A stretch of 64,000 bases of DNA, taken from an uncultured bacterium. Lineage in GTDB: Bacteria > Fidelibacterota > UBA2242. The notes under the pieces are model-generated. The model was not told where the DNA came from. It made no database searches and worked only from the letters and a program-made list of their open reading frames with translations. Position numbers and translations under genes: made by a program. The first letter of the stretch is position 1, and each line of letters opens with the position of its first letter. The stretch is from contig CAZNUN010000008.1 of assembly GCA_964576275.1 (NCBI GenBank), positions 32,441 to 96,440 on the forward strand, in the 5' to 3' direction. This document shows positions 1 to 41,708 of the stretch, in pieces.

Positions 1-992
1 TTGCCGGTGCATTGCTGCATACTTTAAACCATTCCTTATTCAAGTCTTCCTTATTTTATGCGGCTGGCAATGTCTATCGGGCAATTCATACGCTGAACCT
101 GGAATCGCTGGGCGGATTATTCCGGAAAATGCCGCAAACTGCTATGCTATTCCTGCTGTCGGCCCTGGCGATCTGCGGATTGCCGCCTTTCAACGGTTTT
201 ATTTCGGAGTTTATTCTTTACGGCGGGCTGTACCAAGGCAGTCTGCAGGCATCTCCGGTGAAAGCCCTAATTCTCATGCTGTCAATTTTAGGATTGGCGC
301 TGATTGGCGGATTGGCGTTGCTCTGTTTTACAAAAGCCTTCGGGATAGTTTTTCTGGGAAATCAACGGAAATCTCTTCCGCAACAAGATTGGAAAGAAGG
401 CCCGGGCAATCTGATTCCGCTTTACATTAACAGCGGGCTGATCCTGGCAATCGGCCTGTTTCCGGCAACATTTGTAAAATTGCTGAGCGCTCCGCTGGCA
501 TTGTTCGTCCCGAATTTTAACCAGGCATTTTTTGATTTCGAACTTCTTCAAAATCTGCAACAAGTCAGCCGGGCGACTGTCGGTCTGTTTGCCGTGTCTT
601 TTATTGTGCTGGGGATCAGGTATCTTGTCACGCATAGAGCCGTTAGAGAGGTTGGACCGACGTGGGGCTGCGGATATACCGGCAGAATGGACAAGATGCA
701 ATACACTGCAACCTCTTTCGTGAGAATGTATCGCAAACTCGCTGCACCGGCATTGCTGGTTCACCGGAAAAATGTCGAAATCCACGAGATATTTCCGCAT
801 GAAAAGCGCACCTATGAAACTCACCCGGAGGATGCTCTGGAGATAAATCTGATCGATAAACCGATTAATTTATTACAACGTTTTCTCTCGCTTTTCAGGT
901 TTATCCAGAATGGAAAAATCCAAAATTACCTGTTGTATGGCTTGGTATTTCTCCTGTTGATCGGGCTGCTGAGCTGGAGCAAACTCATATAG
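1..992 (+). CDS. NuoL/HyfB(HycC)-like proton-translocating antiporter subunit of a complex-I/hydrogenase-4-like module; 5'-truncated by the window edge (frame is open to position 1 and the track start is TTG)
   Basis: Polytopic membrane protein with NuoL/M/N-family style helices ('LFYAAGNVYRAIHTLNLESLGG...MLFLLSALAICGLPPFNGFISEF'). First gene of a co-directional nuo/hyf-like operon. No stop upstream in frame. Confidence 0.55.
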   Translation, partial: AGALLHTLNHSLFKSSLFYAAGNVYRAIHTLNLESLGGLFRKMPQTAMLFLLSALAICGLPPFNGFISEFILYGGLYQGSLQASPVKALILMLSILGLALIGGLALLCFTKAFGIVFLGNQRKSLPQQDWKEGPGNLIPLYINSGLILAIGLFPATFVKLLSAPLALFVPNFNQAFFDFELLQNLQQVSRATVGLFAVSFIVLGIRYLVTHRAVREVGPTWGCGYTGRMDKMQYTATSFVRMYRKLAAPALLVHRKNVEIHEIFPHEKRTYETHPEDALEINLIDKPINLLQRFLSLFRFIQNGKIQNYLLYGLVFLLLIGLLSWSKLI

Positions 993-995
993 ATT

Positions 996-1901
996 ATGCA
1001 GGCTTTGGTACTAATATTATTAATAAGTTTGTTCTTTGGCGGAATAGTCATAAGAACCAAGAGCGTCTGTGCCGGCCGGAAGGGACCGGGAATATTTCAA
1101 CCGCTGAAAGACATCTGGCGGCTGATGCGCAAAGGTGCCATTTTCAGCAACACCGCGACTGTTCTGACCCGCATCGCGCCCTCGATCTACTTCGCTAGTG
1201 TATTGATTGCGGTAGCGTGTATTCCATTCGGGAATGTTAAGGGGCTGCTTTCCTTTCAGGGTGATCTCGTGTTTTTTGCGTATGCCCTGGCGCTGGGTAA
1301 GTTTTTCATGATTGTTGCGGCGCTGGACACCGGCAGCAGTTTCGAGGGGATGGGGGCCAGTCGCGAAGCTCACTTTTCAATGCTGACCGAACCGGCTTTC
1401 TTCGGAGTGATTGGCTCGCTGGCCTTATTTACCGGGCGTACTTCATTTCACGATATTTTTACCTGCTTGCATTTTGGGAATTATTTATCCTATGTATTGG
1501 GTTCGATCATACTGGTCATTTTTATTATAATAATGCTGGTCGAAAACAGCCGTATGCCGATTGACGATCCGAACACTCATCTGGAACTCACCATGATTCA
1601 TGAGGTGATGGTTTTGGATTACAGCGGATTCGACCTGGGGCTGATTCAGTACACAACCAACCTGAAGTTTGCGATGTACTCTGCTCTGATTGCCAATTTG
1701 TTCACCGGTATGCTGCCGGTCGTGCCGGAAATTCTGATATTTCTCGGAGCCGGCTTTGTATTGGCGGTAATAGTTGGCGGCGTAGAGTCGTTTACCGCCC
1801 GGTTGCGGATGGGCAGAAATCCACAGTTCATTTTTTTGCTGACCTCATGGGCATTGTTATTATTCCTGCTGGTTTTATTCATCACAGGGCGGTTCAGTTA
1901 A
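996..1901 (+). CDS. NuoH/HycD(HyfC)-like membrane subunit (complex I subunit 1 family)
   Basis: 'GPGIFQPLKDIWRLMRKG' resembles the QP(F/L)xD(x)xK loop of NuoH/HycD. About 8 TM helices. Separated by 4 nt from the previous gene. Confidence 0.6.
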   Translation: MQALVLILLISLFFGGIVIRTKSVCAGRKGPGIFQPLKDIWRLMRKGAIFSNTATVLTRIAPSIYFASVLIAVACIPFGNVKGLLSFQGDLVFFAYALALGKFFMIVAALDTGSSFEGMGASREAHFSMLTEPAFFGVIGSLALFTGRTSFHDIFTCLHFGNYLSYVLGSIILVIFIIIMLVENSRMPIDDPNTHLELTMIHEVMVLDYSGFDLGLIQYTTNLKFAMYSALIANLFTGMLPVVPEILIFLGAGFVLAVIVGGVESFTARLRMGRNPQFIFLLTSWALLLFLLVLFITGRFS

Positions 1902-2531
1902 ATGAAAGCCATTATCCTCATATTATTTGCCATTTCATTGTTGAATATTTCAATTTCGAATCGTCTGCGTGGTTTTGCCAGGATTCTCGCGTTCCAGGGT
2001 TTTTTGCTCTTTGTGCTGGCTTTTATCCAATTGCGTGAGGTTACCATTCTCAACCTGGTTTTCATCCTGCTTGAAACGCTTGTGTTCAAAACGATCGTTC
2101 TGCCGATTTTTCTGGATTACGTCATCAAGAAAAACCGGATGACACGGGAAACCGAACCTTACGTGCCATATTTCATTTCGCTATTAATTGTTTCAGCAAT
2201 TGTTCTGGCGTCCTTTATAATCGTCCAGCAAATCGAGGGACTGACCGGCAATACATTATTTTTTATCGTAGCGCTGTCCACTTTATTCACGGGATTGTAT
2301 ATCATCATTTCCCGTAAAAAACTGATCACACACATGATGGGTTATGTGGTCACGGAGAACGGGGTCTTTATTCTTTCACTGGCGATCGGGAATGAAATGC
2401 CCATGATGGTCAATACCGGTATTCTGATCGATCTGTTCATCGGCATTCTGGTAATGGGTATTTTCGTTAATAAGATCGGCGACGTGTTTCAAGAGGCCAA
2501 TAATGAATATCTCAGCCAGATAAGAGATTAA
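1902..2531 (+). CDS. Small polytopic membrane subunit, HyfE/MnhC-NuoK-like
   Basis: 209 aa and entirely hydrophobic helices. Directly abuts the flanking genes (stop/start adjacent). This position and size match hyfE in hyf/ech-type operons. Confidence 0.4.
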   Translation: MKAIILILFAISLLNISISNRLRGFARILAFQGFLLFVLAFIQLREVTILNLVFILLETLVFKTIVLPIFLDYVIKKNRMTRETEPYVPYFISLLIVSAIVLASFIIVQQIEGLTGNTLFFIVALSTLFTGLYIIISRKKLITHMMGYVVTENGVFILSLAIGNEMPMMVNTGILIDLFIGILVMGIFVNKIGDVFQEANNEYLSQIRD

Positions 2532-2532
2532 G

Positions 2533-3969
2533 ATGGTGCTTGGATTTTATTTCGGTATAGCGCTTTTAATCATTGCCGGCTTGTCCGTCAGCCGAAAAAT
2601 TAAGGGTTATATTGTTCTGCTGAGCCTGTTCAATCTCCTGCAATGGAGTCTTACGGTTTACGCTTATTTACATCTTAATTTCGAGACCGGTTTTTTCAAA
2701 GCCGATGCGCTGGCGGTTATTATGCTGATGGTGCTGAGCATCCTTTCAACGACATCTTCATATCACAGTATCTTTTATTTGCAGCATCATCACCGCTTGC
2801 ATTTCACTCCCGAACGAGCCCAGTCGATATATTACACCGGCCTCTGCCTGCTGATCATGGCGCAGACCGGCGCTTTTCTGGCCAGCCACATCGCCGTAAC
2901 CTGGATTTTCGTGGAAATCACGACCTTTGCCGCCACGGTCATGATTTACCATGAGCGCAGCGCCGAATCGATCGAAGCCGCCTGGAAATACCTGTTCGTT
3001 TGCTCGGTGGCGCTGACTTTGACATTTACCGGTATTCTGTTTCTGGGCATCGCAGCCGAAGAAGCCGGAACGGTTAATCTGTTTTACACTTCACTGGTCG
3101 CCCATGCTCCGGCTTTTAATGCATTCTGGCTGAAGATAGCCTTTCTTTTGATCCTGATCGGGTACAGCGCCAAGATGGGTATTTTCCCGATGCACACCGT
3201 CACGATTGACGCTCATACTGTCGCGCCGCCTCCGGTAAGCGCGTTTATCTCCACGACGCTGATGAATGTCGGTTTCGCAGGTATTTTCCGGATGTATGCG
3301 GTCATCGCTCCGACTTCTTCTTTTACTTGGGCCAAACATGTTCTGCTGATCGTTGGGATGTTATCTGTGTTCGTGGCGGTGGTTTATTTGGTCAGCGTCA
3401 GGCATTTCAAACGAATGTTCGCGTATTCCAGCCTGGAGAATATGGGACTGGTCGCCATCGGACTGGGAGTGGGCGGCCTGGCCTATTACGCCGCGATCCT
3501 GCATCTGATCTTGCATTCATTTACCAAAGCCAGTATGTTTTACCAGATTCAGCAGGTGCATCAGTTGTTTAGGTCTTACATCATCCGGAAAACGGGCGGC
3601 TATTTCAAGGCTTACCCGGCGGGCGCAATAGTCATGCTGTTGTGTTTTATCTGTATTGCAGGCATTCCACCGTCCGGGATGTTTATCAGTGAGTTTCTGC
3701 TGGTCGAGGCTATGTTCGCCGGCCGGATGTTCGTGATACTGGCCATTTTGCTTTTACTGCTCACATTCGCGGTCTGGGCGCTCGGGAAAAATTTCACGCA
3801 GCTGATCTTTTCCGAACCGGATCAATCGATCGAAGTCCAGTCCGAAACGCTCAATCCCGTTCACACCATTTCACAGTATGTCCTGCTGGGATTAGTGATC
3901 TATCTCGGTCTGAATCCGCCGCCGCAGATGGTCGCTCTGATTAATGCGGCTATTAACATCGTCCCATGA
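2533..3969 (+). CDS. NuoN/NuoM/HyfF-like proton-pumping antiporter subunit
   Basis: 478 aa, 14-TM-like profile. Contains 'KMGIFPMHTVTIDAHTVAPPPVSAFISTTLMNVG', the conserved broken-helix region (K...H...P) of the NuoM/N/L family. Confidence 0.6.
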   Translation: MVLGFYFGIALLIIAGLSVSRKIKGYIVLLSLFNLLQWSLTVYAYLHLNFETGFFKADALAVIMLMVLSILSTTSSYHSIFYLQHHHRLHFTPERAQSIYYTGLCLLIMAQTGAFLASHIAVTWIFVEITTFAATVMIYHERSAESIEAAWKYLFVCSVALTLTFTGILFLGIAAEEAGTVNLFYTSLVAHAPAFNAFWLKIAFLLILIGYSAKMGIFPMHTVTIDAHTVAPPPVSAFISTTLMNVGFAGIFRMYAVIAPTSSFTWAKHVLLIVGMLSVFVAVVYLVSVRHFKRMFAYSSLENMGLVAIGLGVGGLAYYAAILHLILHSFTKASMFYQIQQVHQLFRSYIIRKTGGYFKAYPAGAIVMLLCFICIAGIPPSGMFISEFLLVEAMFAGRMFVILAILLLLLTFAVWALGKNFTQLIFSEPDQSIEVQSETLNPVHTISQYVLLGLVIYLGLNPPPQMVALINAAINIVP

Positions 3970-5464
3970 TATTATGGAATTTGTAGAAATAAAAAACCAC
4001 GCCAGCATCGCTCTCTCTGCCATTCCGGTATTGGATTATGATTTTTTTCGGCGCCGGAATGTGGATTTGCTCGGCGATGAAAATAATCACTGTGTAGCTC
4101 TGTTTGGTTATCCATTCGGCAAATCTTTGCGTTTGATTTGCGGTATTGCCGACGACCGCAATGGGATAATCCGGATTTTATCAACTGTGATTAACCCGAA
4201 AGACGAATATCCGTCGCTTACGGCTCAGCGCCCGGCTTTGCATATTTTTGAGAGAGAATTGTATGAAAATTTCGGCATTCGCTACAGCGATCATCCCTGG
4301 TTGAAACCGGTCCGTTTTCCACAAAACGCACCCACAAATAAAAATATTCCCGACTACCCGTTTTACCGGATCGACAGCGAAGAACTGCACGAGGTGGGCG
4401 TCGGCCCCATTCATGCCGGAATCATCGAACCGGGACACTTTCGTTTTATCTGCAATGGAGAACAGATTCTGCACCTCGAAATTCAGCTGGGTTTCCAGCA
4501 CCGCGGAATCGAGCGCCTGTTTACGGAGAAGAAGGGTCTGCTCGAACGTGCGACCCTCGCGGAAAACATCGCCGGTGATACGGTCGTCGGGCATACGCTG
4601 GCTTTCGTAAATCTCTGGGAAAGCCTGTGCGGTTTCACGGTTGGCCGGGATTTGCAATTTGCCCGGACGCTGGCGCTCGAACTCGAACGGATTGCGATTC
4701 ATACCGGCGATCTCGCCGCCCTCTGCACCGACATCGGCTATCAGCTCGGCAATGCCGTCCTGGGGCGTTTGCGCACCCCGTTGATTAATTTCTTCCAGCA
4801 GTGGTGTGGCAACCGGCTGGCCAAAAGCCTGATTCGCGCCGGTAAAACCAATTTTTCTTTCACGACGGAACTGGCCGGAAAACTTAATGACATTCTAAGT
4901 GCTTATGAAGCCGATTTCCTGGAAATAGCCGACAAAGCCTTTCATCTGCCGACTATTCTGGCCCGCTTCGAGAAGACTGGAATTGTCACGACTCAACAGG
5001 CGGCCGCAATCGGCGCAGTGGGCATGACCGCCCGTGCCAGCGGATTAGTCCGCGATGTTCGGATTAGTCACCCGTTCGATTTGTACGGGGAACTGGGACA
5101 CCGACCGGTCGTCAAGCACCATGGGGATGTTTATTCGCGCGTCCAGGTCCGGAAGGAAGAGATCGGGCAGTCGCTCGGTTATATCCGAAAATTAATGCAG
5201 GAAATACCGGATGTTCAGCCGCTTCGAGAAATGGGTAAGCCGCAGCCGGACGCCCTGGCGATTTCCCTGACGGAGGGGTGGCGGGGCGAGATCTGCCATT
5301 GCGCCGTTACCGGTGAGGACGGCCAGCTTATTCATTACAAAATAACCGATCCCTCGTTGCACAACTGGCTGGCGCTGGCCCTGGCCGTGCGGAATAATGA
5401 GATTTCCGATTTCCCAATTTGCAATAAAAGTTTCAATCTGTCTTATTGCGGACACGATTTGTAA
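3944..5464 (+). CDS. NuoC-NuoD fusion / group-4 [NiFe]-hydrogenase large-subunit homolog (HycE/EchE-like) without the canonical L1 Ni-Fe cysteine ligands
   Basis: 'VGVGPIHAGIIEPGHFRFICNGEQILHLEIQLGFQHRGIERL' aligns with the NuoD/large-subunit N-terminus 'GPQHP...LRL...GE.V...P.IGYLHRG.EK'. At the position corresponding to L1 (RxCGxCxxxH) it reads 'IAGDTVVGHTLAF', with no Cys. The C-terminus reads 'DFPICNKSFNLSYCGHDL' instead of DPCxxCxxH. The N-terminal ~150 aa is NuoC-like. The start could instead be the M at 3974. Confidence 0.65.
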   Translation: MRLLTSSHDIMEFVEIKNHASIALSAIPVLDYDFFRRRNVDLLGDENNHCVALFGYPFGKSLRLICGIADDRNGIIRILSTVINPKDEYPSLTAQRPALHIFERELYENFGIRYSDHPWLKPVRFPQNAPTNKNIPDYPFYRIDSEELHEVGVGPIHAGIIEPGHFRFICNGEQILHLEIQLGFQHRGIERLFTEKKGLLERATLAENIAGDTVVGHTLAFVNLWESLCGFTVGRDLQFARTLALELERIAIHTGDLAALCTDIGYQLGNAVLGRLRTPLINFFQQWCGNRLAKSLIRAGKTNFSFTTELAGKLNDILSAYEADFLEIADKAFHLPTILARFEKTGIVTTQQAAAIGAVGMTARASGLVRDVRISHPFDLYGELGHRPVVKHHGDVYSRVQVRKEEIGQSLGYIRKLMQEIPDVQPLREMGKPQPDALAISLTEGWRGEICHCAVTGEDGQLIHYKITDPSLHNWLALALAVRNNEISDFPICNKSFNLSYCGHDL

Positions 5465-6231
5465 CCAGGTCGATCATGTTTAAAACACTCAGCATTTTAA
5501 TTCATCAGGGCAAACAGTACATACCGCAACCGACCGAGGCCGAAGTACCGGGAATATTCCGCGGCCGGCCGCTGATCGGCCTGGCGGACGTTGACGAATC
5601 CGCTTTGGCGGCGGTTTGCCCGGTTCAGGCCATCGGTGTCTCTCCGGTCAGCATTGATCTTGGCAAATGTACATTCTGCGGCGAATGCGCCCTGGCATTC
5701 CCGCACAAGGTCGGTTTTACCAAAGACTATAAACTGGCCACTAATGACCGTCGCCGGCTAATCATTTCAGCCGGTGACGACCAGCCGCTGCAAATCGATC
5801 CGGTATTGGTGCGGAAAGAGATTTTTAAATATTTCCGCGGCTCGCTGAAACTTAGGCAGGTTTCAGCAGGCGGCGATAATAGTTGTGAGCTGGAGCTGAA
5901 TGCCAGCGGTAACGTGAATTTCGACGTCGGGCGATACGGCATCGAGTTCGTGGCGTCGCCGCGCCATGCCGATGGTATCGTGATCACCGGCCCGATTACG
6001 AAAAATATGGCCGAGGCGCTGGAGATTTGCTACCAGGCAATTCCCGAACCGCGCATCGTTATTTTAGCCGGAACGGATGCCATCAGCGGCGGCATCTTGG
6101 CGGACAGTCCGGCGCTGGATCGCAGTTTCCTGGAGAAACATCCTGTCGATCTTTACCTGCCCGGCAATCCGGTGCATCCGCTGACTTTCCTAAACGGCGT
6201 GCTGGATCTCATCCGCACCCGTAAAACCTGA
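5446..6231 (+). CDS. NuoI-like ferredoxin domain fused to a NuoB/HycG-like small subunit, with degenerate Fe-S ligands
   Basis: N-terminal half: 'AAVCPVQAI' and 'CTFCGECALAFP', i.e. a single CP plus one CxxCxxC. C-terminal half: 'FVASPRHADGIVITGPITKNMAEAL', the NuoB signature GSPRHAD..VTG. 'GDNSCELE' stands in for CCxxE, 'AGTDAISGG' for GxCxxxGG, and 'LPGNPVHP' for PGCPP. An alternative start is the M at 5476. Confidence 0.6.
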   Translation: MRTRFVTRSIMFKTLSILIHQGKQYIPQPTEAEVPGIFRGRPLIGLADVDESALAAVCPVQAIGVSPVSIDLGKCTFCGECALAFPHKVGFTKDYKLATNDRRRLIISAGDDQPLQIDPVLVRKEIFKYFRGSLKLRQVSAGGDNSCELELNASGNVNFDVGRYGIEFVASPRHADGIVITGPITKNMAEALEICYQAIPEPRIVILAGTDAISGGILADSPALDRSFLEKHPVDLYLPGNPVHPLTFLNGVLDLIRTRKT

Positions 6232-7308: not shown

Positions 7309-7477
7309 CGCGTCAGATCCAAACAGGTTTTGATTTGAGATTCGGATTTTGTCATTCTCATTCCATTGTTGAACATCTTATTACTGCCGTTTGAATTTAA
7401 TTGACCGAACTGAATTTCTGAATTGCATTTTTCGGTTTGTTTTAATACGTTCAGTCAAATGTGAGAAGGAAATGGAC

Positions 7478-9340
7478 ATGCGTGAAATGAGAAAAACCTT
7501 AATCGTGGTAATAATTTTAACTGCTCTGATAACTGTATCATCCGGGGCTGAATTTAAGTTCGCCTGGTTTACCGACACTCATATCGGTTCCTCGACGGCT
7601 GCGGAAGACTTGCAGGCGGCTGTCGCAGATGTCAACCGGCAACCGGACATCCGGTTTGTAATTATTTCCGGTGATGTTACCGAACAGGATTTCGGCGTCA
7701 ACCTTAATCAGGCCAAGATGCTTTTGGATGAATTAAACTTTCCGCATTATGTAATTCCAGGTAATCACGATCTGAAATGGACCGATTCGGGCGGTGAACG
7801 GTACCGGAAACTGTTTGGAACAGATCATTTTAATTTCGAGTTTCAGGGTTTGCGTTTTATCGGATTTCATCAGGGGCCGTTGTTGAAAATGGGCGACGGT
7901 TATATTGCCCGGGAAGAACTGAGTTGGCTCGACTCGACCCTGCAGAATTTGCCGGACAAAAATCAGCGCCTGGTTTTCGTAACGCACTATCCTATGGACA
8001 ATTCCGTCAGCAATTATTTCGACTTCTTCCGGTTAATTGAAGGGTACAATGTCCAAGCCCTACTGTGCGGACACGGTCACGCCAACCGGATTTCCGATGC
8101 CGACGGTCTGCCGCAAATCATGAGCCGCTCGACTCTGCGCGCCCGGTCGGGAACCGGCGGTTATACGCTCGTTGAGGTTGATGACGATTCGATCCGTTTC
8201 AGCGAACGTTTATCTGCCGGGACTGCTGACAAAGTCTGGGCGACCGTTGCAATTCAGGATCGGCTTTATAAAAATACCGGAGCCGTCGAATCCCAGCCGG
8301 ATTACAGTCAAAATGAAAAATATCCTTTCGTAAAAGTCCAATGGACCTTCGATGCCGGCGCGACTGTGACGGCGGCGACGGCGACCGATGGTAAAATTGT
8401 GGTAGTCGGTGCGAAAGATGGCAGTTGTTATGCCTTATCGGTCAAAGACGGAAAGAAGTTATGGCGATTTCAGACCGAAGCGCCGCTGCTGGGAACGGCT
8501 GTGATGGCCGGTGACCGTGTAGTTATCGCAGGTTGCGATTCGGTTATATATTGCCTGAGTCTGAAAAACGGTTCGCCGGTCTGGCATGTGAAATGCGCAG
8601 CGCCGGTACTCAGTACACCAACTATTGACCGTGATATAGTTTATATCGGCGGGGCCGATGGAATTTTCCGCGCTCTCGCATTGAAGACCGGTAAAATGAT
8701 TTGGCAGACTAACGGTATCATTGGATTAGTCGAAACCCAGCCGCGCCTGTATAACGGCCGGCTGATCTTCGGAACCTGGGCGAATCGTTTGTATGCTCTG
8801 CGAGCCGCGACCGGTAAAATTGACTGGGAATGGCGCGATGGCTCGGCGCAGATTAATCTTTCTCCGGCGGCCTGTTACCCGGCGGCTTACAAGGATAAAA
8901 TTTTTATTGTGGCGCCGGATCGCTACATGACCTGCATTCAGGCTGACAGCGGCCGGACGCTTTGGCGCTTGAATCGTTATAAAGTGCGCGAATCACTGGG
9001 GATTTCCCAAGACGGGCGTATGATTTTCGCCAAGACTATGCAGGATACTGTGATTGCACTCGATGCTGAAGCGGATGCACCGCGGTATAAATGGGTGGTA
9101 TCAGCCGGTTACGGTTATGAAATCGATCCGTCCCGGCCGGTCGAATATGCCGGGCGACTATTCTTCGGCGATAAGAATGGATTTGTGCATGCGCTCGATG
9201 CTCAAACTGGCGAAGTTCTCTGGCATTACCGCCTCGGCTGGGCAGCCGTGAACGATATTACACCGCTGAACGCCAAGGAATTGTTAGTTTCGGCTGTTGA
9301 TGGCAGAATGCACCTAATTACGACCGGCGCAGTGAAATAG
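7478..9340 (+). CDS. Secreted calcineurin-like metallophosphoesterase fused to a PQQ-repeat beta-propeller domain
   Basis: 'FAWFTDTHIG', 'ISGDVT', 'IPGNHD' and 'CGHGH' are metallophosphoesterase motifs. The C-terminal half carries repeated 'DG.(I/V)...DG...A....G..LW' PQQ/BamB-like blades. The track ORF starts at a TTG at 7391; the start was trimmed to the ATG (MREMRK) with 'AAGGA' 7 nt upstream. Signal peptide follows. Confidence 0.7.
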   Translation: MREMRKTLIVVIILTALITVSSGAEFKFAWFTDTHIGSSTAAEDLQAAVADVNRQPDIRFVIISGDVTEQDFGVNLNQAKMLLDELNFPHYVIPGNHDLKWTDSGGERYRKLFGTDHFNFEFQGLRFIGFHQGPLLKMGDGYIAREELSWLDSTLQNLPDKNQRLVFVTHYPMDNSVSNYFDFFRLIEGYNVQALLCGHGHANRISDADGLPQIMSRSTLRARSGTGGYTLVEVDDDSIRFSERLSAGTADKVWATVAIQDRLYKNTGAVESQPDYSQNEKYPFVKVQWTFDAGATVTAATATDGKIVVVGAKDGSCYALSVKDGKKLWRFQTEAPLLGTAVMAGDRVVIAGCDSVIYCLSLKNGSPVWHVKCAAPVLSTPTIDRDIVYIGGADGIFRALALKTGKMIWQTNGIIGLVETQPRLYNGRLIFGTWANRLYALRAATGKIDWEWRDGSAQINLSPAACYPAAYKDKIFIVAPDRYMTCIQADSGRTLWRLNRYKVRESLGISQDGRMIFAKTMQDTVIALDAEADAPRYKWVVSAGYGYEIDPSRPVEYAGRLFFGDKNGFVHALDAQTGEVLWHYRLGWAAVNDITPLNAKELLVSAVDGRMHLITTGAVK

Positions 9341-9371
9341 AAAACGTATCTGATAATTCTTTTAAATGAAA

Positions 9372-9400
9372 AATCCCCGAACGACTTCGGGGATTTTATG
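9372..9400. terminator. Rho-independent terminator, bidirectional between convergent genes
   Basis: 'aatccccgaa-cgac-ttcggggatt' followed by 'ttatgttggtttt'. Coordinates +/-2. Confidence 0.65.
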
Positions 9401-9421: not shown

Positions 9422-10441
9422 TTACACGAATAAGTCGCTAAAGCGAGCCGCGGGACGGTTTTTCCAGTGGCCCTGATGATAAGCATAACTGACTAAGAGC
9501 GGCATGGTCAGAGTGGCTTCACCGTAAACCATTTGTTCGTACTTGGTATCGACTTTGCCCCAGGAACTGGCCTCCTTGAGAGTCGAGCCGGAGAGACCGC
9601 CGTCACGTTCGTCGGCTACAGTCAACTGTACGGCGTATTTGTGCATCGGTTTTTCAATTTCCAGCACGTCGGTAGCCACGACTACGTCCTGAGTGAAATT
9701 TTTCGGGACGCCGCCGCCAATCATCAAAATGCCGGTCTCTTCCGCGGCGATTTTGACTTTGGTAAGTTCCAGAAAATCCCGGGCGGAATCAATGGTGACC
9801 ATCGCGTCTTTGCGATTCCACTGGTGATGGATCAGGCCGAATCCAGCCGAACAATCGGAGAACGCCGGCACGAAAATCGGCACGCCTTTTTTATAGGCCG
9901 AATAGATAATCGATTTCTCGGTTTTAATACCGACTTTGTCGAGATATTTGCCCATTTCCCAGATAAATTCGCGCGATGAGAAAGGACGCGGCGGCAGAGA
10001 ATTGGCGATTTCGGCGACCGTCATATCGCAGACGCGCAGTTCGTCTTCGTCGATGTAGGTATCGTAGATACGGTCGATCGCCAGGTCGCGCAGTTCACTG
10101 TCGTCGCTGAACGGTGTGCCGACGTAATGCTTGAAACCGAGGGCTTCGAAGAAATCCTGGTCGACCATCAGAGCGCCGGTTGATACGATGGCGTCCACCA
10201 TATTGTTTTCGACCATATCGGCCACGACGTCTTTCAGTCCGGCGCTGAACAATGAACCGGCCAGGGTCAGGATAACCTTGCACTTTTCGTCTTTCAGCAT
10301 CCGGTCGTAAATATCGGCCGCGACGGCCAGATTGCGCGCCTGAAAGGCCATTTTTTCATAAGCCCGCAGGATCGGACGCGCGTCGAATGTTTTTATATCA
10401 ATATGTTCGACCACCTTTTGCAGATAATCGTTCTTTTTCAT
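9422..10441 (-). CDS. Deoxyhypusine synthase-like aminobutyltransferase (DHS family; likely homospermidine-synthase-type function in a bacterium)
   Basis: 'MVENNMVDAIVSTGA' matches DHS 'LVQHNMVDVLVTTAGG'. 'GILMIGGGVPKNF' matches 'GMIILGGGVVKHH'. 'EASSWGKV' matches the catalytic-Lys region 'EAVSWGKI'. Its ATG overlaps the agmatinase stop (ATGA). Confidence 0.75.
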   Translation of the reverse strand: MKKNDYLQKVVEHIDIKTFDARPILRAYEKMAFQARNLAVAADIYDRMLKDEKCKVILTLAGSLFSAGLKDVVADMVENNMVDAIVSTGALMVDQDFFEALGFKHYVGTPFSDDSELRDLAIDRIYDTYIDEDELRVCDMTVAEIANSLPPRPFSSREFIWEMGKYLDKVGIKTEKSIIYSAYKKGVPIFVPAFSDCSAGFGLIHHQWNRKDAMVTIDSARDFLELTKVKIAAEETGILMIGGGVPKNFTQDVVVATDVLEIEKPMHKYAVQLTVADERDGGLSGSTLKEASSWGKVDTKYEQMVYGEATLTMPLLVSYAYHQGHWKNRPAARFSDLFV

Positions 10442-11313
10442 TTAGTTGACTCCTTTGCATAAATCATACTTAAAGTTCGGTAAATGAGTTTAGCCGCCAG
10501 AAAATCGGGGGCTTTGTCGGACGGATTGGGCAATAGCTCGTTGACATCCATGCCGACGATACGCTTTTTTTGAATAACATGCGATATGACGTTGATGACG
10601 TCATACCAGCCCAGACCGCCCGGTTCGGGCGTGCCGGTCGAGGGCATAATCGCCGGATCGAAGACATCCAGGTCGACGGTCAGGTACACATTTTCCGTCA
10701 GATTGGCGCAGATTTTATCGAAGATTTCCGGTGAATTGTGATACTCGTGCGCGAAAATAACCCGCGATTTATCCAGACGCGGCAGTTCGCCGAGGTCCAT
10801 ACTGCGAATGCCGACCTGCATGATCGGACAGAATTCGCGGATGCGGGCCATGACGCAGGCATGATTGTACCGGCTGTGTTCGTACTCGTCGCGCAGGTCG
10901 GAGTGGGCGTCCAGCTGCAGAACCGACAGATTCGGAAAATGTTTGGCATGCGCCTGCGCCAGTCCGATCGAGATGGAATGTTCGCCGCCGAGGCTGACGA
11001 CGAATTTGCCGTCGTTCAGCAGCTGTGCGGTTTTAGCCGCGACGATTTGCGCCAGGTCTTCGGGTTTCTCCGGGCAGTCAACCGGCGGTAAAGTGGTGAT
11101 ACCCTGCCGGTAAACTTCCAAGCCGGTCTCGATGTCGTAGAGTTCCATGTTGGCGGAAGCAGCCAGTAAAGCCGCCGGGCCGTTGTCAGCCCCTTTTTGC
11201 CAGGTGGCGGTTCCGTCGTAAGGAATTGGCAAAATGGCTATCCGTGAAGATGGATACTGAGAATATTCCGACGCGAGCGCGCCGAAGGCTCCGGGTGAAA
11301 AGGCAGTCGGCAT
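10438..11313 (-). CDS. speB: Agmatinase / arginase-family ureohydrolase
   Basis: Arginase-fold Mn-binding motifs: 'GGEHSISIG', 'DAHSDLRDE' and 'SVDLDVFDPAIMPSTGTPEPGG'. Confidence 0.7.
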   Translation of the reverse strand: MPTAFSPGAFGALASEYSQYPSSRIAILPIPYDGTATWQKGADNGPAALLAASANMELYDIETGLEVYRQGITTLPPVDCPEKPEDLAQIVAAKTAQLLNDGKFVVSLGGEHSISIGLAQAHAKHFPNLSVLQLDAHSDLRDEYEHSRYNHACVMARIREFCPIMQVGIRSMDLGELPRLDKSRVIFAHEYHNSPEIFDKICANLTENVYLTVDLDVFDPAIMPSTGTPEPGGLGWYDVINVISHVIQKKRIVGMDVNELLPNPSDKAPDFLAAKLIYRTLSMIYAKESTK

Positions 11314-11328
11314 TTTTTTTATGTCAGA

Positions 11329-11718
11329 CTAAGGGTGTTGCGGGAAATCTTCGCCACGCTCTCTAAGATACCATTTGGGAGACTGGCTTTTAAAATATTC
11401 TATGATAAGATCCCGCGCCATATCCACGTCGAATGCCCGACAGGAGAAAAGGTCAACAAATGCAAATTTTTTACTGGGATATGTATGCACGGAAATGTGA
11501 CTTTCGGCAATGATCACGACGCCTGTAATACCTTCGTCGCCGGGGAAGCGTCCTTCGTACCGGAATACATAAGGCTGGGTAATTTTGGTCATGCCGATTT
11601 TGGGGGGGAGTTCGTTTAAAAGTTTGAAGCAAGCTTCGAGACTGTCTAAAACCGCTGGTTCACAGTCATTTAAATCCAGCATTAAGTGGGGTCCATAGCC
11701 ATACTTTGTTTCTGCCAT
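11329..11718 (-). CDS. speH: S-adenosylmethionine decarboxylase proenzyme, class 1b (pyruvoyl-dependent, SpeH/SpeD type)
   Basis: 'GVVIIAESHISVHTYPSKKFAFVDLFSCRAF' contains the ES(H) self-cleavage site of the small AdoMetDC family. The track ORF extends to 11820; the start was trimmed to ATG 11718 (MAETKYG), with 'GGAGGG' 11 nt upstream. Confidence 0.6.
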   Translation of the reverse strand: MAETKYGYGPHLMLDLNDCEPAVLDSLEACFKLLNELPPKIGMTKITQPYVFRYEGRFPGDEGITGVVIIAESHISVHTYPSKKFAFVDLFSCRAFDVDMARDLIIEYFKSQSPKWYLRERGEDFPQHP

Positions 11719-11919
11719 TTCGCATAAACCCTCCATTAATGAGTTAATCACGACACACAGTTCAAACCGATATGAGGCATCGTTTTGAAATCTGTAAAAA
11801 AACGCGCTATTATACGTCATTTTTTTTATTTTTCAAACAAAAATTATTCAGAGAAAACAAGATGATTTTCCGACGGGAGGCGAGGAGAAGCCAATGTTAA
11901 AGTTGCTAAAATATTTTTA

Positions 11920-11966: not shown

Positions 11967-12587
11967 ATGAGTTTCCAAGGTATGAAAGATGAAAATAAAA
12001 AATTGACACCAGCCGTCGCCTACGCCCGCCAATTTATCCTGGCCAACGGCACACATGGACTGAATCTCGATCAACTAACTGCCGACCTGCACATCGCCAA
12101 GAAAACCATTTACAAAGAATTTGCCACCAAAGATCAATTTATCGAGTATGTTCTGTTTGACATTTATCGCGAACTCTTTACTGAAACCCGGGCGGTGCAA
12201 TTAGATAAAAAGAACCCATTGCAATGTTTCTATGAATTAATGAAAGTGCTTTTCCGGCATGTTTCGCAGATCAATCCAAAGACAGTTCTGGATGTCAAAT
12301 TATTTTTTCCGCGAGTGTGGAAGGAGATCGAGGAATTCGAACAGGAAGTAATCAACCGCATATTAGACTCTTTTCAGAAAGCGGACGAATTAGGTCTGTT
12401 GCGCAAGAAATTCAATCTGAAATTCACCGCTGATTTTATTGTTAGGATGCTGGAAAACACGTTTCAGCCGGAGCTGTTTATTAACGCGCCCTATTCAATT
12501 GCCGACATGATTCAGATATTTGTAGATATAATCATGAATGGAATTATGGATAAAAAATTCACCTTTAATTTTTCGGATGCTGAATGA
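11967..12587 (+). CDS. TetR/AcrR-family transcriptional regulator
   Basis: N-terminal HTH 'GLNLDQLTADLHIAKKTIYKEFATKDQFIEYVL' fits the TetR_N pattern. 206 aa. First gene of a translationally coupled operon. Confidence 0.6.
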   Translation: MSFQGMKDENKKLTPAVAYARQFILANGTHGLNLDQLTADLHIAKKTIYKEFATKDQFIEYVLFDIYRELFTETRAVQLDKKNPLQCFYELMKVLFRHVSQINPKTVLDVKLFFPRVWKEIEEFEQEVINRILDSFQKADELGLLRKKFNLKFTADFIVRMLENTFQPELFINAPYSIADMIQIFVDIIMNGIMDKKFTFNFSDAE

Positions 12588-14866
12588 TTAAGAAAATTAT
12601 CGAATTCGACCTGAAATACCCGCGCACGATCATCGCCGCGTGTATCCTGCTAACATTACTGATGGGCTGGAGTATTCCACGCATCCAGCTGGAGCCGGAT
12701 GTCAAAGCCCTGATGCCGCAGGATTTCGAGATCATAAATTCCATGAAAGAGATGGAAGATACGTTTGGCGGCAACGATCTGGTCGTGGTTTCGATTACAT
12801 CAGAGAATATCTTCTCGTTGGCGACGCTGGAGAAAATTGAAGCCATGACGGCCGAAATCGAAACGCTGGCGACGGTTGATCAGGTGGTTTCGATTACGAA
12901 TGTCCCGGACGTCGTAGGTACTGCCGATGGCTTTGAAGTTCACGAAATGATTGAGGATTTGCCGACGACGGTCAGCCAGATTGATTCCCTCAAAAAGCGC
13001 ATCGCTGATAATCGCATGATCTACGGGACATTAGTTTCGGAGGATTTCCAAAAAGCCGGGATTATTGCATATCTGGATGTCGCCGGACATAAGAACACCG
13101 ACAATGAAATATATGACACCTTCATGGCGCTTAAGCATAAATATGAGGGTCCCGAAAAGATACATATGGCCGGGTTGCCTTTAACCCGTCGGGAAGTGTC
13201 CGCCACGATGACTTCGGATGTTAAAAAACTTTTTCCGTACGGGATAACTCTGATGATTCTGCTGTTGGTTTTTACTTTCCACAGCTGGACGGGCGCCTTT
13301 TTACCTTTTACCGTTGTGATAATGTCAATCGTGTTCACGATCGGGCTAATGGTCATGGTCGGAGTGAAGATGACTGTGGTCGAGATGCTGATTCCGGTGA
13401 TGCTGATCGCAATTGCGAACAGTTATAGCATTCAGGTTATCACCCAATATTTCGTGGAGTATTTCAATAATCCCAAAGCCGATAAGGACAATCTTATCCG
13501 GCTGATTTTGTCCTATCTGACGACGCCGGTGCTGTTGTCCGGATTTACGACGCTGGTCGGATTCCTCAGTCTGCGGTCGCATATTTTACCGCCGGCGAAA
13601 AATCTCGGATTGTTGTGTGCCTGTGGAACGACGATGGCCTATATCTACAGCCTGACCTTCATTCCGGCGGCGCTGAAACTGCTCGATTTTCCGGCGACTC
13701 TGAAAGCTGCCAGTTCGCATGAACGCACCAGTCGGTTTATGCAAGGCTGGGGGCGCTTTTTCATTCGTTTTCGCAAACCGTTCTTGATTGCCTGCCTGCT
13801 GGGAATTATCGGTGTGTCAACTGGAATGACCCGCATTATCGTGGATACCAATCCGATTGCATACTGGAAGAAATCGGCTGAAATCCGCCAGAGCAACGAT
13901 GTCATCGACCGGAATTTCGGCGGGAGTTCGACGATTTCTATCCTGGCGACCGGCGATATTAAAGATCCGGAATTTCTGCGCAAGATCGAAAGTCTGTGCA
14001 CGTTTCTGGAGAGCCAGCCGGCTGTGACGCGCGCCAATTCGATTGTGGACATGCTAAAACGTATGAACCAGGCCTTTCACGGCGACAGCGTCCAGTATAA
14101 TATCATCCCGGCGACTACCGAAGAGGTCGCCCAGTATCTTTTTCTGTATTCTTTGACCGGCGATACGAAAGATCTGGACCGCTTTGTGGATTACGACTAT
14201 ACCCAGGCGCAAATTCTGGCGCGGGTGAATGACTCCAGCTCGAAGACCTCTTATAAACTCTATACCGACACACAAGATTTTATCGCTAATAACATGGGAA
14301 CGGAAAATTTCCCGTCGGTTTCCGGGATGGCGCCGCTGATCGGGGTTTTATCGAAATTGGTTGTAGATGGACAAATTCGCAGTCTGGCGCTTTCGATTGT
14401 CGCGGTTTTTATCATTGTGGCGATTGCCTTCCGTTCCACGGTTGCCGGACTGATTTCCATCGTTCCACTCAGCGCGGCGGTGGTATGCCTGTTTGGAGTG
14501 ATGGGTTATGTTGGCATCACGCTGAATATGGCCACCGCCCTGATTTCCAGCATCATGATTGGCATTGGCATTGATTACACGATTCATTTTATCTTTCGTT
14601 TTCGCCTGGAAGCTAGGAAAGACGGAGATGCGGAACAAGCCGCTATCCGAACAATGACCACAAGCGGAAAAGGAATTGTTTATAACGCGGTTGCGGTTAT
14701 AATCGGTTTTACGGTATTGATGCTTTCCGGATTCGAGCCGATTTTCTTCTTTGGTTTTTTAATTGTGTTTTCGATCGTCGGCTGTTTATTCGGAGCGCTA
14801 ACGATTCTGCCGTCTTTGCTGATATTGACCAAACCGGGTTTTATTTTTGGAAAAAGGAGTAAATGA
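12584..14866 (+). CDS. MMPL/RND-superfamily exporter (two 6-TM bundles with large periplasmic loops)
   Basis: 760 aa with duplicated halves. RND/SSD-like TM regions ('...PVMLIAIANSYSIQVITQYF...' and '...SSIMIGIGIDYTIHFIFRF...'). ATGA overlap with tetR. Confidence 0.7.
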   Translation: MIKKIIEFDLKYPRTIIAACILLTLLMGWSIPRIQLEPDVKALMPQDFEIINSMKEMEDTFGGNDLVVVSITSENIFSLATLEKIEAMTAEIETLATVDQVVSITNVPDVVGTADGFEVHEMIEDLPTTVSQIDSLKKRIADNRMIYGTLVSEDFQKAGIIAYLDVAGHKNTDNEIYDTFMALKHKYEGPEKIHMAGLPLTRREVSATMTSDVKKLFPYGITLMILLLVFTFHSWTGAFLPFTVVIMSIVFTIGLMVMVGVKMTVVEMLIPVMLIAIANSYSIQVITQYFVEYFNNPKADKDNLIRLILSYLTTPVLLSGFTTLVGFLSLRSHILPPAKNLGLLCACGTTMAYIYSLTFIPAALKLLDFPATLKAASSHERTSRFMQGWGRFFIRFRKPFLIACLLGIIGVSTGMTRIIVDTNPIAYWKKSAEIRQSNDVIDRNFGGSSTISILATGDIKDPEFLRKIESLCTFLESQPAVTRANSIVDMLKRMNQAFHGDSVQYNIIPATTEEVAQYLFLYSLTGDTKDLDRFVDYDYTQAQILARVNDSSSKTSYKLYTDTQDFIANNMGTENFPSVSGMAPLIGVLSKLVVDGQIRSLALSIVAVFIIVAIAFRSTVAGLISIVPLSAAVVCLFGVMGYVGITLNMATALISSIMIGIGIDYTIHFIFRFRLEARKDGDAEQAAIRTMTTSGKGIVYNAVAVIIGFTVLMLSGFEPIFFFGFLIVFSIVGCLFGALTILPSLLILTKPGFIFGKRSK

Positions 14867-15222
14867 TGACCTCTGAGCGTCGAGATAAAAATATCGCCCG
14901 TTCAATTCTAATTGTCTCAGGCGGGATTGTGATTTATTGGCTTTACGAGGCGATTGTCTGGCTGGTTCACTGGCTAAGCACTGCCGGTTTGAAAGCCGGA
15001 GTGGGAGTGAATTTCGGAGAATTTTGCCTGGACAATCTGGGCATTATTCTAGTCGTTTATGTTATAATCTGTCTGCAAATTGCCGGCGTTGTGGAGTTCC
15101 GCCAGCGCAGAAATTTTACGGAGGCGTTTTTTCTGGGAGTCATTCTGACTCCGATATTAATGCCGGTTTATATGAGATTAAAAGAGAAAGGCTTCTTCAA
15201 GGCCAAAAGGAGGTTTGAATGA
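14863..15222 (+). CDS. Small integral membrane protein (3 TM), operon member
   Basis: 119 aa, hydrophobic. Overlaps both neighbours by 4 nt. Confidence 0.4.
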   Translation: MMTSERRDKNIARSILIVSGGIVIYWLYEAIVWLVHWLSTAGLKAGVGVNFGEFCLDNLGIILVVYVIICLQIAGVVEFRQRRNFTEAFFLGVILTPILMPVYMRLKEKGFFKAKRRFE

Positions 15223-16016
15223 AAAGATATTTTTCGTTGTTATTAATGTTAGCGCTTATTGTGCTTTTTGCTAATCCAGGTTGGGCGCAGATGTCCGGGC
15301 GTGACATTATGTTGAAAGTCGAAAAACAACAAGAGGTCAAAGCCCGGGTGGTTAAATCGAAAATGATTTTAGTTAATAAGCAAAATAAAACCCGTGAGCG
15401 GGATGTCCTTCAATATACCAAATCGGTCAACGATCCCAACGGCATCGACGATAAAATTCTGGTGTTTTTCGAATATCCGGCAGACATCCGCGGAACCGGC
15501 TTACTGATGATTTCATACACTGACATCAAGAAAGACGACGATCGCTGGCTTTACCTGCCGGCTTTGAAAAAAGTCCGCCGGATCGCGGGCGAGAGCAAGA
15601 ACGAATACTTCATGGGAACCGATTTTACCTACGATGATATGGGTGGCCGCGGCATCGATCAGGACACCCATAAATTGCTGGGCGAGGAAACGATTGACGG
15701 AGTAAAATGTTACAAAATCGAGTCGGTTCCTGTTGATAAGAATGATTTATACAGTAAGAAAATCGGCTGGGTAATCGCTGATAAATGGGTTCATTTGAAA
15801 GTTGAGTTTTACGATCGTAAAGGCCAGCTCCTGAAAACCATGCAGGCCACGGACATCCGCAATGTTTCGGGAGTCTGGCTGCAGTTTAATCTGGAGATGA
15901 CGAATTTTGCCGAAAATCATAAGACTATTCTGAAAATTCTAGAAGCTAAAATCAACGAACCAATCGACGACCAGATATTTACTACCACAGCCCTGGAGCG
16001 CGGAGGCATCAAATGA
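15219..16016 (+). CDS. LolA-like 'outer-membrane lipoprotein-sorting' family protein, the periplasmic partner typical of MMPL exporters
   Basis: Signal peptide. 'DDRWLYLPALKKVRRIAGESKNEYFMGTDFTYDDM' is characteristic of the LolA-like family found next to MMPL transporters. Confidence 0.5.
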   Translation: MKRYFSLLLMLALIVLFANPGWAQMSGRDIMLKVEKQQEVKARVVKSKMILVNKQNKTRERDVLQYTKSVNDPNGIDDKILVFFEYPADIRGTGLLMISYTDIKKDDDRWLYLPALKKVRRIAGESKNEYFMGTDFTYDDMGGRGIDQDTHKLLGEETIDGVKCYKIESVPVDKNDLYSKKIGWVIADKWVHLKVEFYDRKGQLLKTMQATDIRNVSGVWLQFNLEMTNFAENHKTILKILEAKINEPIDDQIFTTTALERGGIK

Positions 16017-17299
16017 AACGGGTAGTAATCGGAATGGCCTTACTGCTTCTGATGTGCCTGAATAAGCCGTTACAAGGCCAGGTGACTTTACGTGGTTTTG
16101 TCTTGAATCAGGATATGTTCAGAGCGCGTGAGGCAACGGACGCGATGCTGATTCGCAACCGCCTGCGCCTGAATGCCGAACTTTCCGGAGATAATGTGGC
16201 GGCTTATGCCTCGCTGGACATTACCAATGACATTACCGACAGCACTACGACCATTCCCAATCTGCGGGAGGTTTACCTTGATATTTACAGCAACTGGCTG
16301 GATTTACGCATCGGCAAGCAGCAGGTCGTGTGGGGAAAAACCGACGGTTATTTCATTAATGATATCGTGAACCCGCTGGATTTGTCCTATTTCCTGTTGC
16401 AGGAGTTTGACGATATTCGCATGGCCACAACCATGCTGAATGCCAAATTGCATCGCGGCAATCATTCCCTGGAAATGCTGTTCATCCCGGAATTCAAACC
16501 GATCAATTTGTTATTTGAGGGTGACTGGGGATATGAGCGGCCGGATTCCATCGATGTCCCTGATCCAGCATCCAGTTACAGTGAAGGAACTATGACTGTT
16601 CCAATAAATTATCAAGGTGATTCAGATGTAAAACCGTCCCTAAAAAATGCCGAATACGGTTTCAAATTCAATACCTTTATTTTTGGAACCGACCTGGCCC
16701 TGATTTACCTGCGAAGCCGGGAAGACCGGCCGGTTTACTTTACCCAAATGTTTCTGACTACATCTGGAATAAGTATGAATCTGACGCCGACACATCCCTG
16801 GCAGAGTTTTTTCGGCTTGAATTTTTCCAGGCCGTGGGGCGCATTCGTTTTTCGGGGTGAAGGCGGATACTATCCGGAGCGTCACTTCAACACCGAGAAT
16901 CAAACCTATTTATCGGATGGAATGATCATCGCAAAGCCCTTCACACAGTTAATGCTTGGTGCCGATTATCAGTTATCATCGTCTCTCGACCTGTCGATTC
17001 AGGCAATCAATGAACGAATTCTGGATTTTGAAGAGGGAATCCAAAACGATGAAAATGTAATGATCGGAACGTTGATGCTACGGGGACATTTTGTTAATGA
17101 GACGGTTTCGCCGCTGTTTTTCCTGTTGAATAATTTTGAAGATAAATCGTCTTTATTACGTTTGAGCGTTGACTGGAATTACGCGGACAACTTTACCGTG
17201 ACGGCCGGAGCGGATTTTCTGAGCGGCGATGCGGATACGATTTTTGGTATGTATGCTAACAATGATAATGTTTATTTGAAGTTGAGATATAGTTTTTAG
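16013..17299 (+). CDS. Outer-membrane beta-barrel protein (operon-terminal; C-terminal 'LKLRYSF')
   Basis: Signal peptide. Alternating amphipathic strands. Terminal aromatic residue. Coupled to the LolA-like gene. Confidence 0.45.
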   Translation: MKRVVIGMALLLLMCLNKPLQGQVTLRGFVLNQDMFRAREATDAMLIRNRLRLNAELSGDNVAAYASLDITNDITDSTTTIPNLREVYLDIYSNWLDLRIGKQQVVWGKTDGYFINDIVNPLDLSYFLLQEFDDIRMATTMLNAKLHRGNHSLEMLFIPEFKPINLLFEGDWGYERPDSIDVPDPASSYSEGTMTVPINYQGDSDVKPSLKNAEYGFKFNTFIFGTDLALIYLRSREDRPVYFTQMFLTTSGISMNLTPTHPWQSFFGLNFSRPWGAFVFRGEGGYYPERHFNTENQTYLSDGMIIAKPFTQLMLGADYQLSSSLDLSIQAINERILDFEEGIQNDENVMIGTLMLRGHFVNETVSPLFFLLNNFEDKSSLLRLSVDWNYADNFTVTAGADFLSGDADTIFGMYANNDNVYLKLRYSF

Positions 17300-25274: not shown

Positions 25275-25287
25275 CTTTTTCTCCTTT

Positions 25288-41700: not shown

Positions 41701-41708
41701 GTCATTGA

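Follow-up and report, generated by a model that had tools for sequence, protein, structure and literature searches.

A speDA-speB-speY operon in a Marinimicrobia genome and its probable route from L-arginine to homospermidine through diagmatine

The stretch of DNA analyzed here (64,000 nucleotides of contig CAZNUN010000008.1 from an uncultured bacterium, assembly GCA_964576275.1; hereafter the window) carries, on its minus strand at 9422-11718, three genes for a SpeD-fold pyruvoyl decarboxylase, an arginase-fold ureohydrolase, and a homolog of deoxyhypusine synthase (DHS), which we refer to as SpeDA, SpeB, and SpeY. Judging from sequence and gene context, it is very probable that this operon encodes a self-contained route from L-arginine to sym-homospermidine in which two molecules of agmatine are joined. 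In the first step, the 129-aa SpeD-fold protein would cleave itself at Ser73 to form a pyruvoyl cofactor and would decarboxylate arginine, not S-adenosylmethionine, to agmatine. In the second step, to which close orthology points, the deoxyhypusine-synthase-like SpeY would oxidize one agmatine with NAD+, hold its 4-guanidinobutyl group as an imine on Lys296, and then transfer this group onto the primary amine of another agmatine molecule, giving N1,N9-bis(guanidino)homospermidine (G44G, also called caldomycin or diagmatine). In the third step, suggested by protein family and context, the Mn-dependent SpeB homolog would remove both guanidino groups, leaving homospermidine and two molecules of urea. 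The whole pathway would proceed without decarboxylated S-adenosylmethionine (dcSAM), putrescine, or spermidine synthase.

The cluster is an ordinary member of a system already known, the pathway of which was solved experimentally between 2023 and 2026. It is not new, because the same cluster from the same phylum was published in 2023, and the chemistry of the DHS homolog was solved in 2024 and generalized in 2026. An earlier note on this DNA had proposed either an unusual spermidine or homospermidine route or an agmatine-based aminobutyl transfer; the latter is the alternative favored by the orthology of SpeY, and the route is neither unusual nor open, being already published. The features of the locus are as follows.

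11809..11836, minus strand: promoter-like site TTGAAA-16 nt-TATAAT, 11/12 matches
11719..11808, minus strand: 5' leader of ~85-90 nt, with a Shine-Dalgarno sequence GGAGGG at 11734-11729
11666..11725, minus strand: candidate overlapping upstream open reading frame (ORF), 19 codons + TGA (product MRNGRNKVWLWTPLNAGFK), with its ATG 7 nt before the speDA ATG
11329..11718, minus strand: speDA, 129 aa (Pfam AdoMet_dc, 89 bits), most likely an L-arginine decarboxylase (arginine to agmatine)
10438..11313, minus strand: speB-type ureohydrolase, 291 aa (Pfam Arginase, 218 bits), most likely an N1,N9-bis(guanidino)homospermidine (diagmatine) ureohydrolase
9422..10441, minus strand: speY (DHS homolog), 339 aa (Pfam DS, 337 bits; NF002699, 579.8 bits)
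9370..9397, no strand assigned: hairpin terminator between convergent genes, AAAATCCCCGAA-GTCG-TTCGGGGATTTT, with a minus-strand tail TCATTT

The unit is a three-gene operon that runs from the promoter at 11836-11809 through speDA, speB, and speY to the terminator at 9397-9370, the palindrome of which was reported on the plus strand and, in the minus-strand reading, has a T-rich tail and lies 25 nt past the speY stop. The cluster noted earlier at 9422-11718 is real and its coordinates are exact, 11718 being the correct start, and the fold assigned to each of the three proteins agrees with its Pfam domain. The three genes had also been called translationally coupled, which is strictly right for speB and speY, where the speB stop TGA (10440-10438) overlaps the speY ATG (10441-10439) in the sequence ATGA and AAGGAG is found 7 nt upstream of the speY ATG, and not in the strict sense for speDA and speB, where the stop TAG (11331-11329) is followed by a 15-nt spacer and then, with no overlap, by the speB ATG at 11313.

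The first gene was listed as an ORF of 163 aa (11329..11820). We place its start at the ATG at 11718 because the homologs begin M-x-x-x-x-[YC]-GYGPH, at the equivalent methionine, and because the ATG of the over-long ORF at 11820 falls within the -10 box of the promoter-like site; GGAGGG is found 10 nt upstream of the ATG at 11718. A further in-frame ATG at 11736 was considered as a start and rejected, as it is not conserved in the relatives L081, L094, and L004. Both promoter hexamers show little or no variation in 12 relatives, among which the DNA upstream of the site is not conserved; relatives of the Marinimicrobia type also have a conserved leader. In public databases, the gene calls for some close relatives (P0002, P0003, P0256, and P0259) start 34 codons early and give 163 aa; these extra codons (window 11719-11820, minus strand) span the conserved promoter and 5' leader, and the conserved form of the protein has 129 aa.

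SpeY matched the NCBIfam equivalog NF002699, the G44G synthase model, with 579.8 bits against a cut-off of 500 over residues 5-338 of its 339 aa. The scores against the DHS equivalogs were all below cut-off, namely, NF002006 [303.7 (cut-off 434)], NF002630 [245.3 (364)], TIGR00321 [235 (304)], NF003052 [175 (380)], and NF002294 [173.8 (350)], and that against the homospermidine biosynthesis protein model was below its cut-off as well. SpeY is 63% identical to CdmS of Thermus thermophilus over 338 aa (E 5e-152), the CdmS sequence being that printed in the supplement of PMC10981699, in which paper the residue numbering is 5 higher than that of the printed sequence. The residues named in CdmS, as the catalytic lysine and as proposed agmatine-binding residues, the roles of which come from a docking model and not from mutagenesis (PMC10981699), are all found in SpeY (Ser67/S63, Glu136/E132, Asp143/D139, Phe204/F201, Leu286/L283, Glu293/E290, and Lys299/K296).

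The earlier note had named loss of the catalytic lysine or the NAD-binding residues as grounds against its reading; when SpeY was aligned with a human DHS fragment, which was verified against PDB chain 1rlz_A, no such loss was seen, the catalytic K329 and the NAD-site D313 and D238 of the human enzyme being kept, as are E323 and W327. The DHS homolog looks active and is an ortholog of the agmatine homocoupling enzyme. The spermidine-site residues D243, H288, and D316 of human DHS are replaced by F201, N248, and L283, respectively; the Leu at the human-316 position also occurs in the archaeal DHS structures 7cmc and 8put. Among 124 SpeY sequences, K296, E290, W294, D280, D196, F201, L283, and N248 are invariant, a check that covered these eight positions. 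The DHS motif GGGVVKHH contains H288, which we take to be important for catalysis in human DHS. This motif reads GGGVPKNF (N248) in every SpeY examined, including CdmS and the cyanobacterial SpeY of Cylindrospermum, and the change of His to Asn-Phe is not named as a difference in the CdmS paper, of which supplementary Figure 1 includes both of these proteins (PMC10981699).

CdmS of T. thermophilus joins two molecules of agmatine into N1,N9-bis(guanidino)homospermidine, which is then converted by a ureohydrolase into homospermidine, and agmatine was the sole amine accepted among those tested (Kobayashi et al., 2024; PMC10981699). All of the SpeY proteins tested, which came from a range of phyla, make G44G (Li et al., 2026; PMC13625781). 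Judging from the model scores, the identity to CdmS, and the active-site residues, we regard SpeY as an ortholog of the agmatine homocoupling enzyme SpeY/CdmS and not as a deoxyhypusine synthase (EC 2.5.1.46) in the strict sense, because it stays below the equivalog cut-offs and lacks the spermidine-site residues. The eukaryotic and archaeal DHS shares with SpeY its fold, NAD site, catalytic lysine, and, presumably, the mechanism of imine transfer, whereas its substrates are spermidine and eIF5A and that of SpeY is free agmatine, with Phe, Asn, and Leu in place of D243, H288, and D316.

The product of the first gene, which the earlier note had named a class-1b SAM decarboxylase, is highly likely from its sequence to be an arginine decarboxylase (SpeDA) that derives from SpeD and would supply agmatine. 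Its score against the canonical class 1b SpeD equivalog TIGR03330 was 72.1 bits, just under the cut-off of 75.65. Ser73, His78, Cys93, and Glu72 correspond to S63, H68, C83, and E62 of SpeD from Thermotoga maritima and are invariant in 121 family members, which also have an insertion of 5-6 residues before the GITG strand and a remodeled loop on the substrate side. Two prolines are common to canonical sequences, of which P51 (T. maritima numbering) is changed to Asp in the SpeD-like family and P71 (the Pro of HTYP) is kept; E72 (the Glu of HTWPE) is changed to Lys, Arg, Gln, or Ser and is apparently never Glu. It was reported that one proline is conserved in true S-adenosylmethionine decarboxylase (AdoMetDC) and not in SpeDA, and that many SpeD homologs without a SpeE partner are arginine (SpeDA) or ornithine (SpeDC) decarboxylases (Li et al., 2023; PMC10407285). 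The residues diagnostic of SpeDC (Gln, Thr, Phe, and Tyr) are not found in the window protein, which has IIAESHISVHTYP...AFVDLFSC against VQLIETS..GHF..AYIDIFSC of SpeDC, a comparison made by eye on the printed supplementary alignment.

The first SpeDA to be proven was the speD product of a Candidatus Marinimicrobia speD-speB-speY cluster, which is an arginine decarboxylase without AdoMetDC activity, and one of the two SpeD paralogs of Vampirovibrio chlorellavorus is likewise an arginine decarboxylase, the other being a true AdoMetDC (PMC10407285). In a record named 'Microcystis phage MaAM05', speH_2, speH_1, speE, and speB stand in a row, and the speH_1 product is 99% identical to a V. chlorellavorus protein. 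The speH_2 product is canonical, with 66% identity to T. maritima SpeD and the motifs FSPYGVSG and HTWPE, and speH_1 and the window family share GPHLMLD, IGMTKITQPYVF, the loop insertion, and FSCK. The window protein matched speH_1 with 136 bits (52% identity), speH_2 with 64 bits, and T. maritima SpeD with 57 bits. The pathway of Vampirovibrio (SpeD2 being the SpeDA in a cluster speD-speD-speE-speB, to the non-canonical paralog of which the window protein is 52% identical) leads from agmatine to spermidine through SpeE, whereas that of the window would lead from agmatine to SpeY.

The record in question is MW495066.1, with speD-speD-speE-speB at 244219-252599, and a protein identical to speH_1 is also encoded on a contig of 908 kb. 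In this stretch of the record, and perhaps in all of its 274 kb, the DNA appears to be that of Vampirovibrio and not of a phage. Separately, the 735-kb genome of an uncultured phage (LR756501.1, 39-5001) has an ORF at 2289-2666 encoding a SpeDA-type homolog that is 54% identical to the window protein and has the family loop insertion, and a 398-aa ORF comes next.

The genes are also linked in other genomes. In 80 metagenome loci with a SpeDA relative 59-91% identical to the window protein, 66 of which had room for speB, speB directly followed the speDA relative in 62/66 and speY came next in 39/47. Called genes on independent contigs showed the order AdoMet_dc, Arginase, DS, or AdoMet_dc and Arginase alone, and SpeY is 90-91% identical to proteins of three metagenome-assembled genomes (MAGs) of Candidatus Neomarinimicrobiota, in which the same three genes occur in the same order, and the window comes from this phylum. 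Four relatives have no speB downstream (L156, L160, L161, and L163); Pfam gave no SpeE and nothing informative for the ORFs on either side of the SpeD-like gene in L160, for a large neighboring ORF in L156, or for another in L163.

Other polyamine genes were sought with Pfam in 49 non-overlapping ORFs, each 90 aa or longer, taken from the entire window. In these ORFs, no Spermine_synth domain, no second AdoMet_dc/SpeD, and no arginine or ornithine decarboxylase of either the pyridoxal phosphate (PLP)-dependent or the pyruvoyl (PvlArgDC) type was found. A SpeE protein from another locus gave no tblastn match in the window (best E 0.014) and none in 166 related loci. The earlier statement that no spermidine synthase is visible nearby thus extends to the full 64 kb, and the search for speE and arginine decarboxylase, run in the window, returned no speE and no arginine decarboxylase apart from the probable SpeDA. 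The lack of speE would be expected, because the proposed pathway needs neither dcSAM nor putrescine. The Sacchrp_dh protein at 34731-36050 was considered as a carboxyspermidine dehydrogenase or homospermidine synthase and rejected, its best solved relative being saccharopine reductase 1e5l (E 3e-94); the SDH domain of human AASS is also among its best solved relatives, and an AlaDh_PNT protein is encoded alongside. From these matches we consider it to be a saccharopine/lysine enzyme and not a polyamine enzyme.

SpeB matched the agmatinase equivalog TIGR01230 with 220 bits, above the cut-off of 174. Its six Mn ligands (H112, D135, H137, D139, D214, and D216) are invariant in 75 SpeB sequences, and the closest solved relative, with which it was aligned, is the archaeal agmatine ureohydrolase 3pzl. 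Every SpeB homolog tested turned G44G into homospermidine, and no activity on agmatine was detected for the two that were linked to SpeY; a true agmatinase, the authors reason, would deprive SpeY of its substrate, and they define a diagmatine ureohydrolase (DUH) as an enzyme specific for G44G with no activity on agmatine (PMC13625781). From its family and context, the assignment of the last pathway step to SpeB is well founded. The earlier note had called this protein an agmatinase; it most likely acts on the coupled product, as in the SpeY-linked cases (PMC13625781), and from its linkage to speY we infer that it would ignore agmatine.

Several points weigh against the route proposed here. The pathway is predicted for this organism from sequence, within a view of 64 kb of the genome. 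The catalytic residues of SpeDA and the Pro of HTYP are all kept, so that some residual AdoMetDC activity would be compatible with the protein. The link of the Vampirovibrio-type paralog to a proven SpeDA passes through a 99% identical sequence and the assumption that the T. maritima-like paralog is the true SpeD. A canonical-looking speD adjoins an agmatinase-family gene on a Persicobacter plasmid, and because of this case the adjacency of speB alone is not diagnostic. Finally, SpeB passes the agmatinase equivalog, which leaves its substrate preference to be judged from context.

Some of these points would favor the alternative in which the first gene encodes a genuine AdoMetDC feeding a spermidine synthase encoded elsewhere, e.g., in an agmatine/N1-aminopropylagmatine route with SpeB as the final ureohydrolase, SpeY being a separate activity that shares the operon. 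Its Pfam AdoMet_dc domain with Ser, His, and Cys intact, the limited view of the genome, and the gene arrangement in Persicobacter are consistent with this alternative. We consider it improbable, as the protein falls below the canonical SpeD cut-off, has the family-specific insertion, lacks the acidic residue of the HTWPE motif, and is nearer to the non-canonical than to the canonical paralog where both adjoin speE. Also against it are the lack of SpeE in the window and the 166 related loci, the need of SpeY for a source of agmatine where no other arginine decarboxylase is found in the window, and the tested Marinimicrobia homolog without AdoMetDC activity (PMC10407285).

It is quite unlikely that SpeB is an ordinary agmatinase producing putrescine and that SpeY makes homospermidine from putrescine-type substrates or from spermidine and putrescine. 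SpeB does pass TIGR01230, and plant enzymes of the DHS family form homospermidine from spermidine and putrescine (PMC13625781); however, CdmS takes agmatine alone among the amines tested (PMC10981699), all tested bacterial SpeY make G44G (PMC13625781), the residues of the window SpeY that correspond to human D243 and H288 are Phe and Asn, as in CdmS, and an active agmatinase would deplete the substrate of SpeY. That the DHS homolog modifies a protein, by a deoxyhypusine-like change on a translation factor, instead of making a free polyamine is highly improbable in spite of the DHS fold and catalytic lysine, since it scores below every DHS equivalog cut-off and above that of the G44G synthase model, is 63% identical to an enzyme proven on free agmatine, and is tightly linked to the decarboxylase and ureohydrolase genes.

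With the arginine to homospermidine route as the preferred reading, the closest known system is the cluster of Ca. Marinimicrobia bacterium CG08_land_8_20_14_0_20_45_22 (Li et al., J Biol Chem 2023; PMC10407285), which has the same phylum, three genes, and proposed end product. It comes from a different genome, its SpeD homolog PIS27863 having 131 aa against 129 aa for the window protein, and PIS27863 is not among the 120 best matches of the latter. In T. thermophilus, CdmS (TTHA1570) and TtSpeBap (Kobayashi et al., Sci Rep 2024; PMC10981699) perform the same two-step chemistry from two agmatine through G44G to homospermidine, whereas the arginine decarboxylase is PLP-dependent and the ureohydrolase also serves the aminopropylagmatine pathway; the window has a pyruvoyl SpeD-derived decarboxylase and a dedicated speB in one operon. 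The identical speDA-speB-speY architecture was described in other phyla, in Capsulimonas corticalis and a Ca. Sericytochromatia MAG, where the SpeY proteins make G44G in Escherichia coli and the SpeY-linked SpeB proteins are G44G-specific (Li et al., J Biol Chem 2026; PMC13625781).

The present cluster adds one Marinimicrobia genome to the established pathway from arginine through agmatine and diagmatine to homospermidine. Its practical value lies in annotation: database entries of close relatives name the first gene S-adenosylmethionine decarboxylase and the second agmatinase, and these names, taken literally, would wrongly predict a dcSAM-dependent spermidine pathway.

The only element of the locus that may be new is a short ORF overlapping the start of speDA. 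The pattern GGAGG-N-TTT-ATG-NNNN-ATG at the speDA start (window 11666-11734 with the ORF, minus strand) is invariant in 58/58 unique sequences with an aligned start, and outside this pattern the leaders of different groups of relatives are completely different. The first ATG (window 11725), present in all 58 unique relatives, is 7 nt upstream of the speDA ATG and in another reading frame. The ORF that it opens has 19 codons in 52 of the 58 sequences and 21 codons in three. Its stop is made up of the third base of speDA codon 17 and the first two bases of codon 18, and codon 17 (Asn, Gly, Ser, Asp, or Ala) ends in T in 54/58. This codon is AAT in all 29 cases of Asn, where 47% of the Asn codons elsewhere in the same genes end in T, and GGT in 15/19 cases of Gly, against 17% elsewhere in the same genes. 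No other position of the overlapping frame has a stop in more than 34 of the 58 sequences. From this codon usage we conclude that selection on a synonymous site of speDA maintains the stop of the overlapping ORF.

The pattern is found at the same place in loci L001-L004 and L081-L155. The sequences are related to each other, so that the effective sample is smaller than 58; they form ~10 lineages at 80% nucleotide identity, with a mean third-position identity of 0.44. All 10 lineages keep the -7 ATG and 8 keep the ORF length. The carriers include MAGs labeled Neomarinimicrobiota and Desulfobacterales and a contig whose protein bears an Anaerolineae label. The -7 ATG is absent from the Vampirovibrio-type and megaphage homologs; in the Vampirovibrio-type homolog, this spot is taken by the stop codon of the preceding speD.

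A riboswitch in the leader was considered and rejected, as neither the window nor 20 related loci matched any Rfam family at gathering score. An RNA structure that would explain the conservation at the start site was likewise unsupported: RNAalifold gave -0.85 kcal/mol for the 58 in-register sequences and -1.18 kcal/mol for 15 leaders, with no compensatory pair and no supported consensus structure. A small hairpin (CGATG..CATCG) can be seen by eye, with one compensatory variant in the relative L081 and no statistical support.

The spacing from the single Shine-Dalgarno sequence is 4 nt for the first ATG and 11 nt for the second. The simplest reading of this arrangement, offered tentatively and with the odds somewhat against it, is that ribosomes translate the overlapping ORF, which would compete with speDA for the one Shine-Dalgarno sequence and in this way set, or let polyamine, arginine, or agmatine set, the amount of arginine decarboxylase. 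If that is true, the ORF would presumably be a bacterial parallel to the upstream ORF through which the mRNA of eukaryotic AdoMet decarboxylase senses polyamines, and to the ornithine-sensing SpeFL leader. Neither the papers on this pathway nor a full-text literature search yielded a description of this ORF. Should it prove real, it would reveal how the flux into an NAD-only, SAM-free polyamine route is set in bacteria.

On one flank of the operon are a divergent TetR-like gene and an MMPL transporter gene, followed in the window by LolA-like and DUF1302 genes, and on the other is a convergent gene encoding a metallophosphoesterase/PQQ-beta-propeller protein. These neighbors (window 11967-17299 and 7391-9340, both plus strand) are kept in a relative in which SpeDA is 77% identical (L081 and L082).

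Several other features of the window were recorded. At 12-6231 (plus strand), a row of genes resembling the Mrp antiporter and complex I (two with Proton_antipo_M, then NADHdh, a fused 30-kDa/49-kDa subunit, and a 20-kDa subunit) is similar to a membrane-bound group 4 hydrogenase or Mbx-type module, and its first gene is cut by the window edge. At 24018-26634 (minus strand), there are two tandem, overlapping, full-length serpin genes of 426 and 448 aa (Pfam Serpin, 385 and 394 bits), which lie downstream of a DUF3160 protein with a type IX secretion sorting domain. At 33371-36050 (plus strand), the AlaDh_PNT protein adjoins the saccharopine reductase ortholog, in what looks like a split bacterial saccharopine pathway for lysine. 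The stretch at 41011-50323 (minus strand) has a low GC content of 0.37-0.43, compared with ~0.48 elsewhere, and contains two successive pairs of TonB-dependent receptor and DUF4249 genes; at its edge (41011-41700) is an ORF with a weak match to IS200-like transposase. Finally, 58556-63463 (plus strand) encodes a 1635-aa protein with a peptidase C25 (gingipain-type) domain, CARDB, and a C-terminal domain of the FlgD-Ig type.

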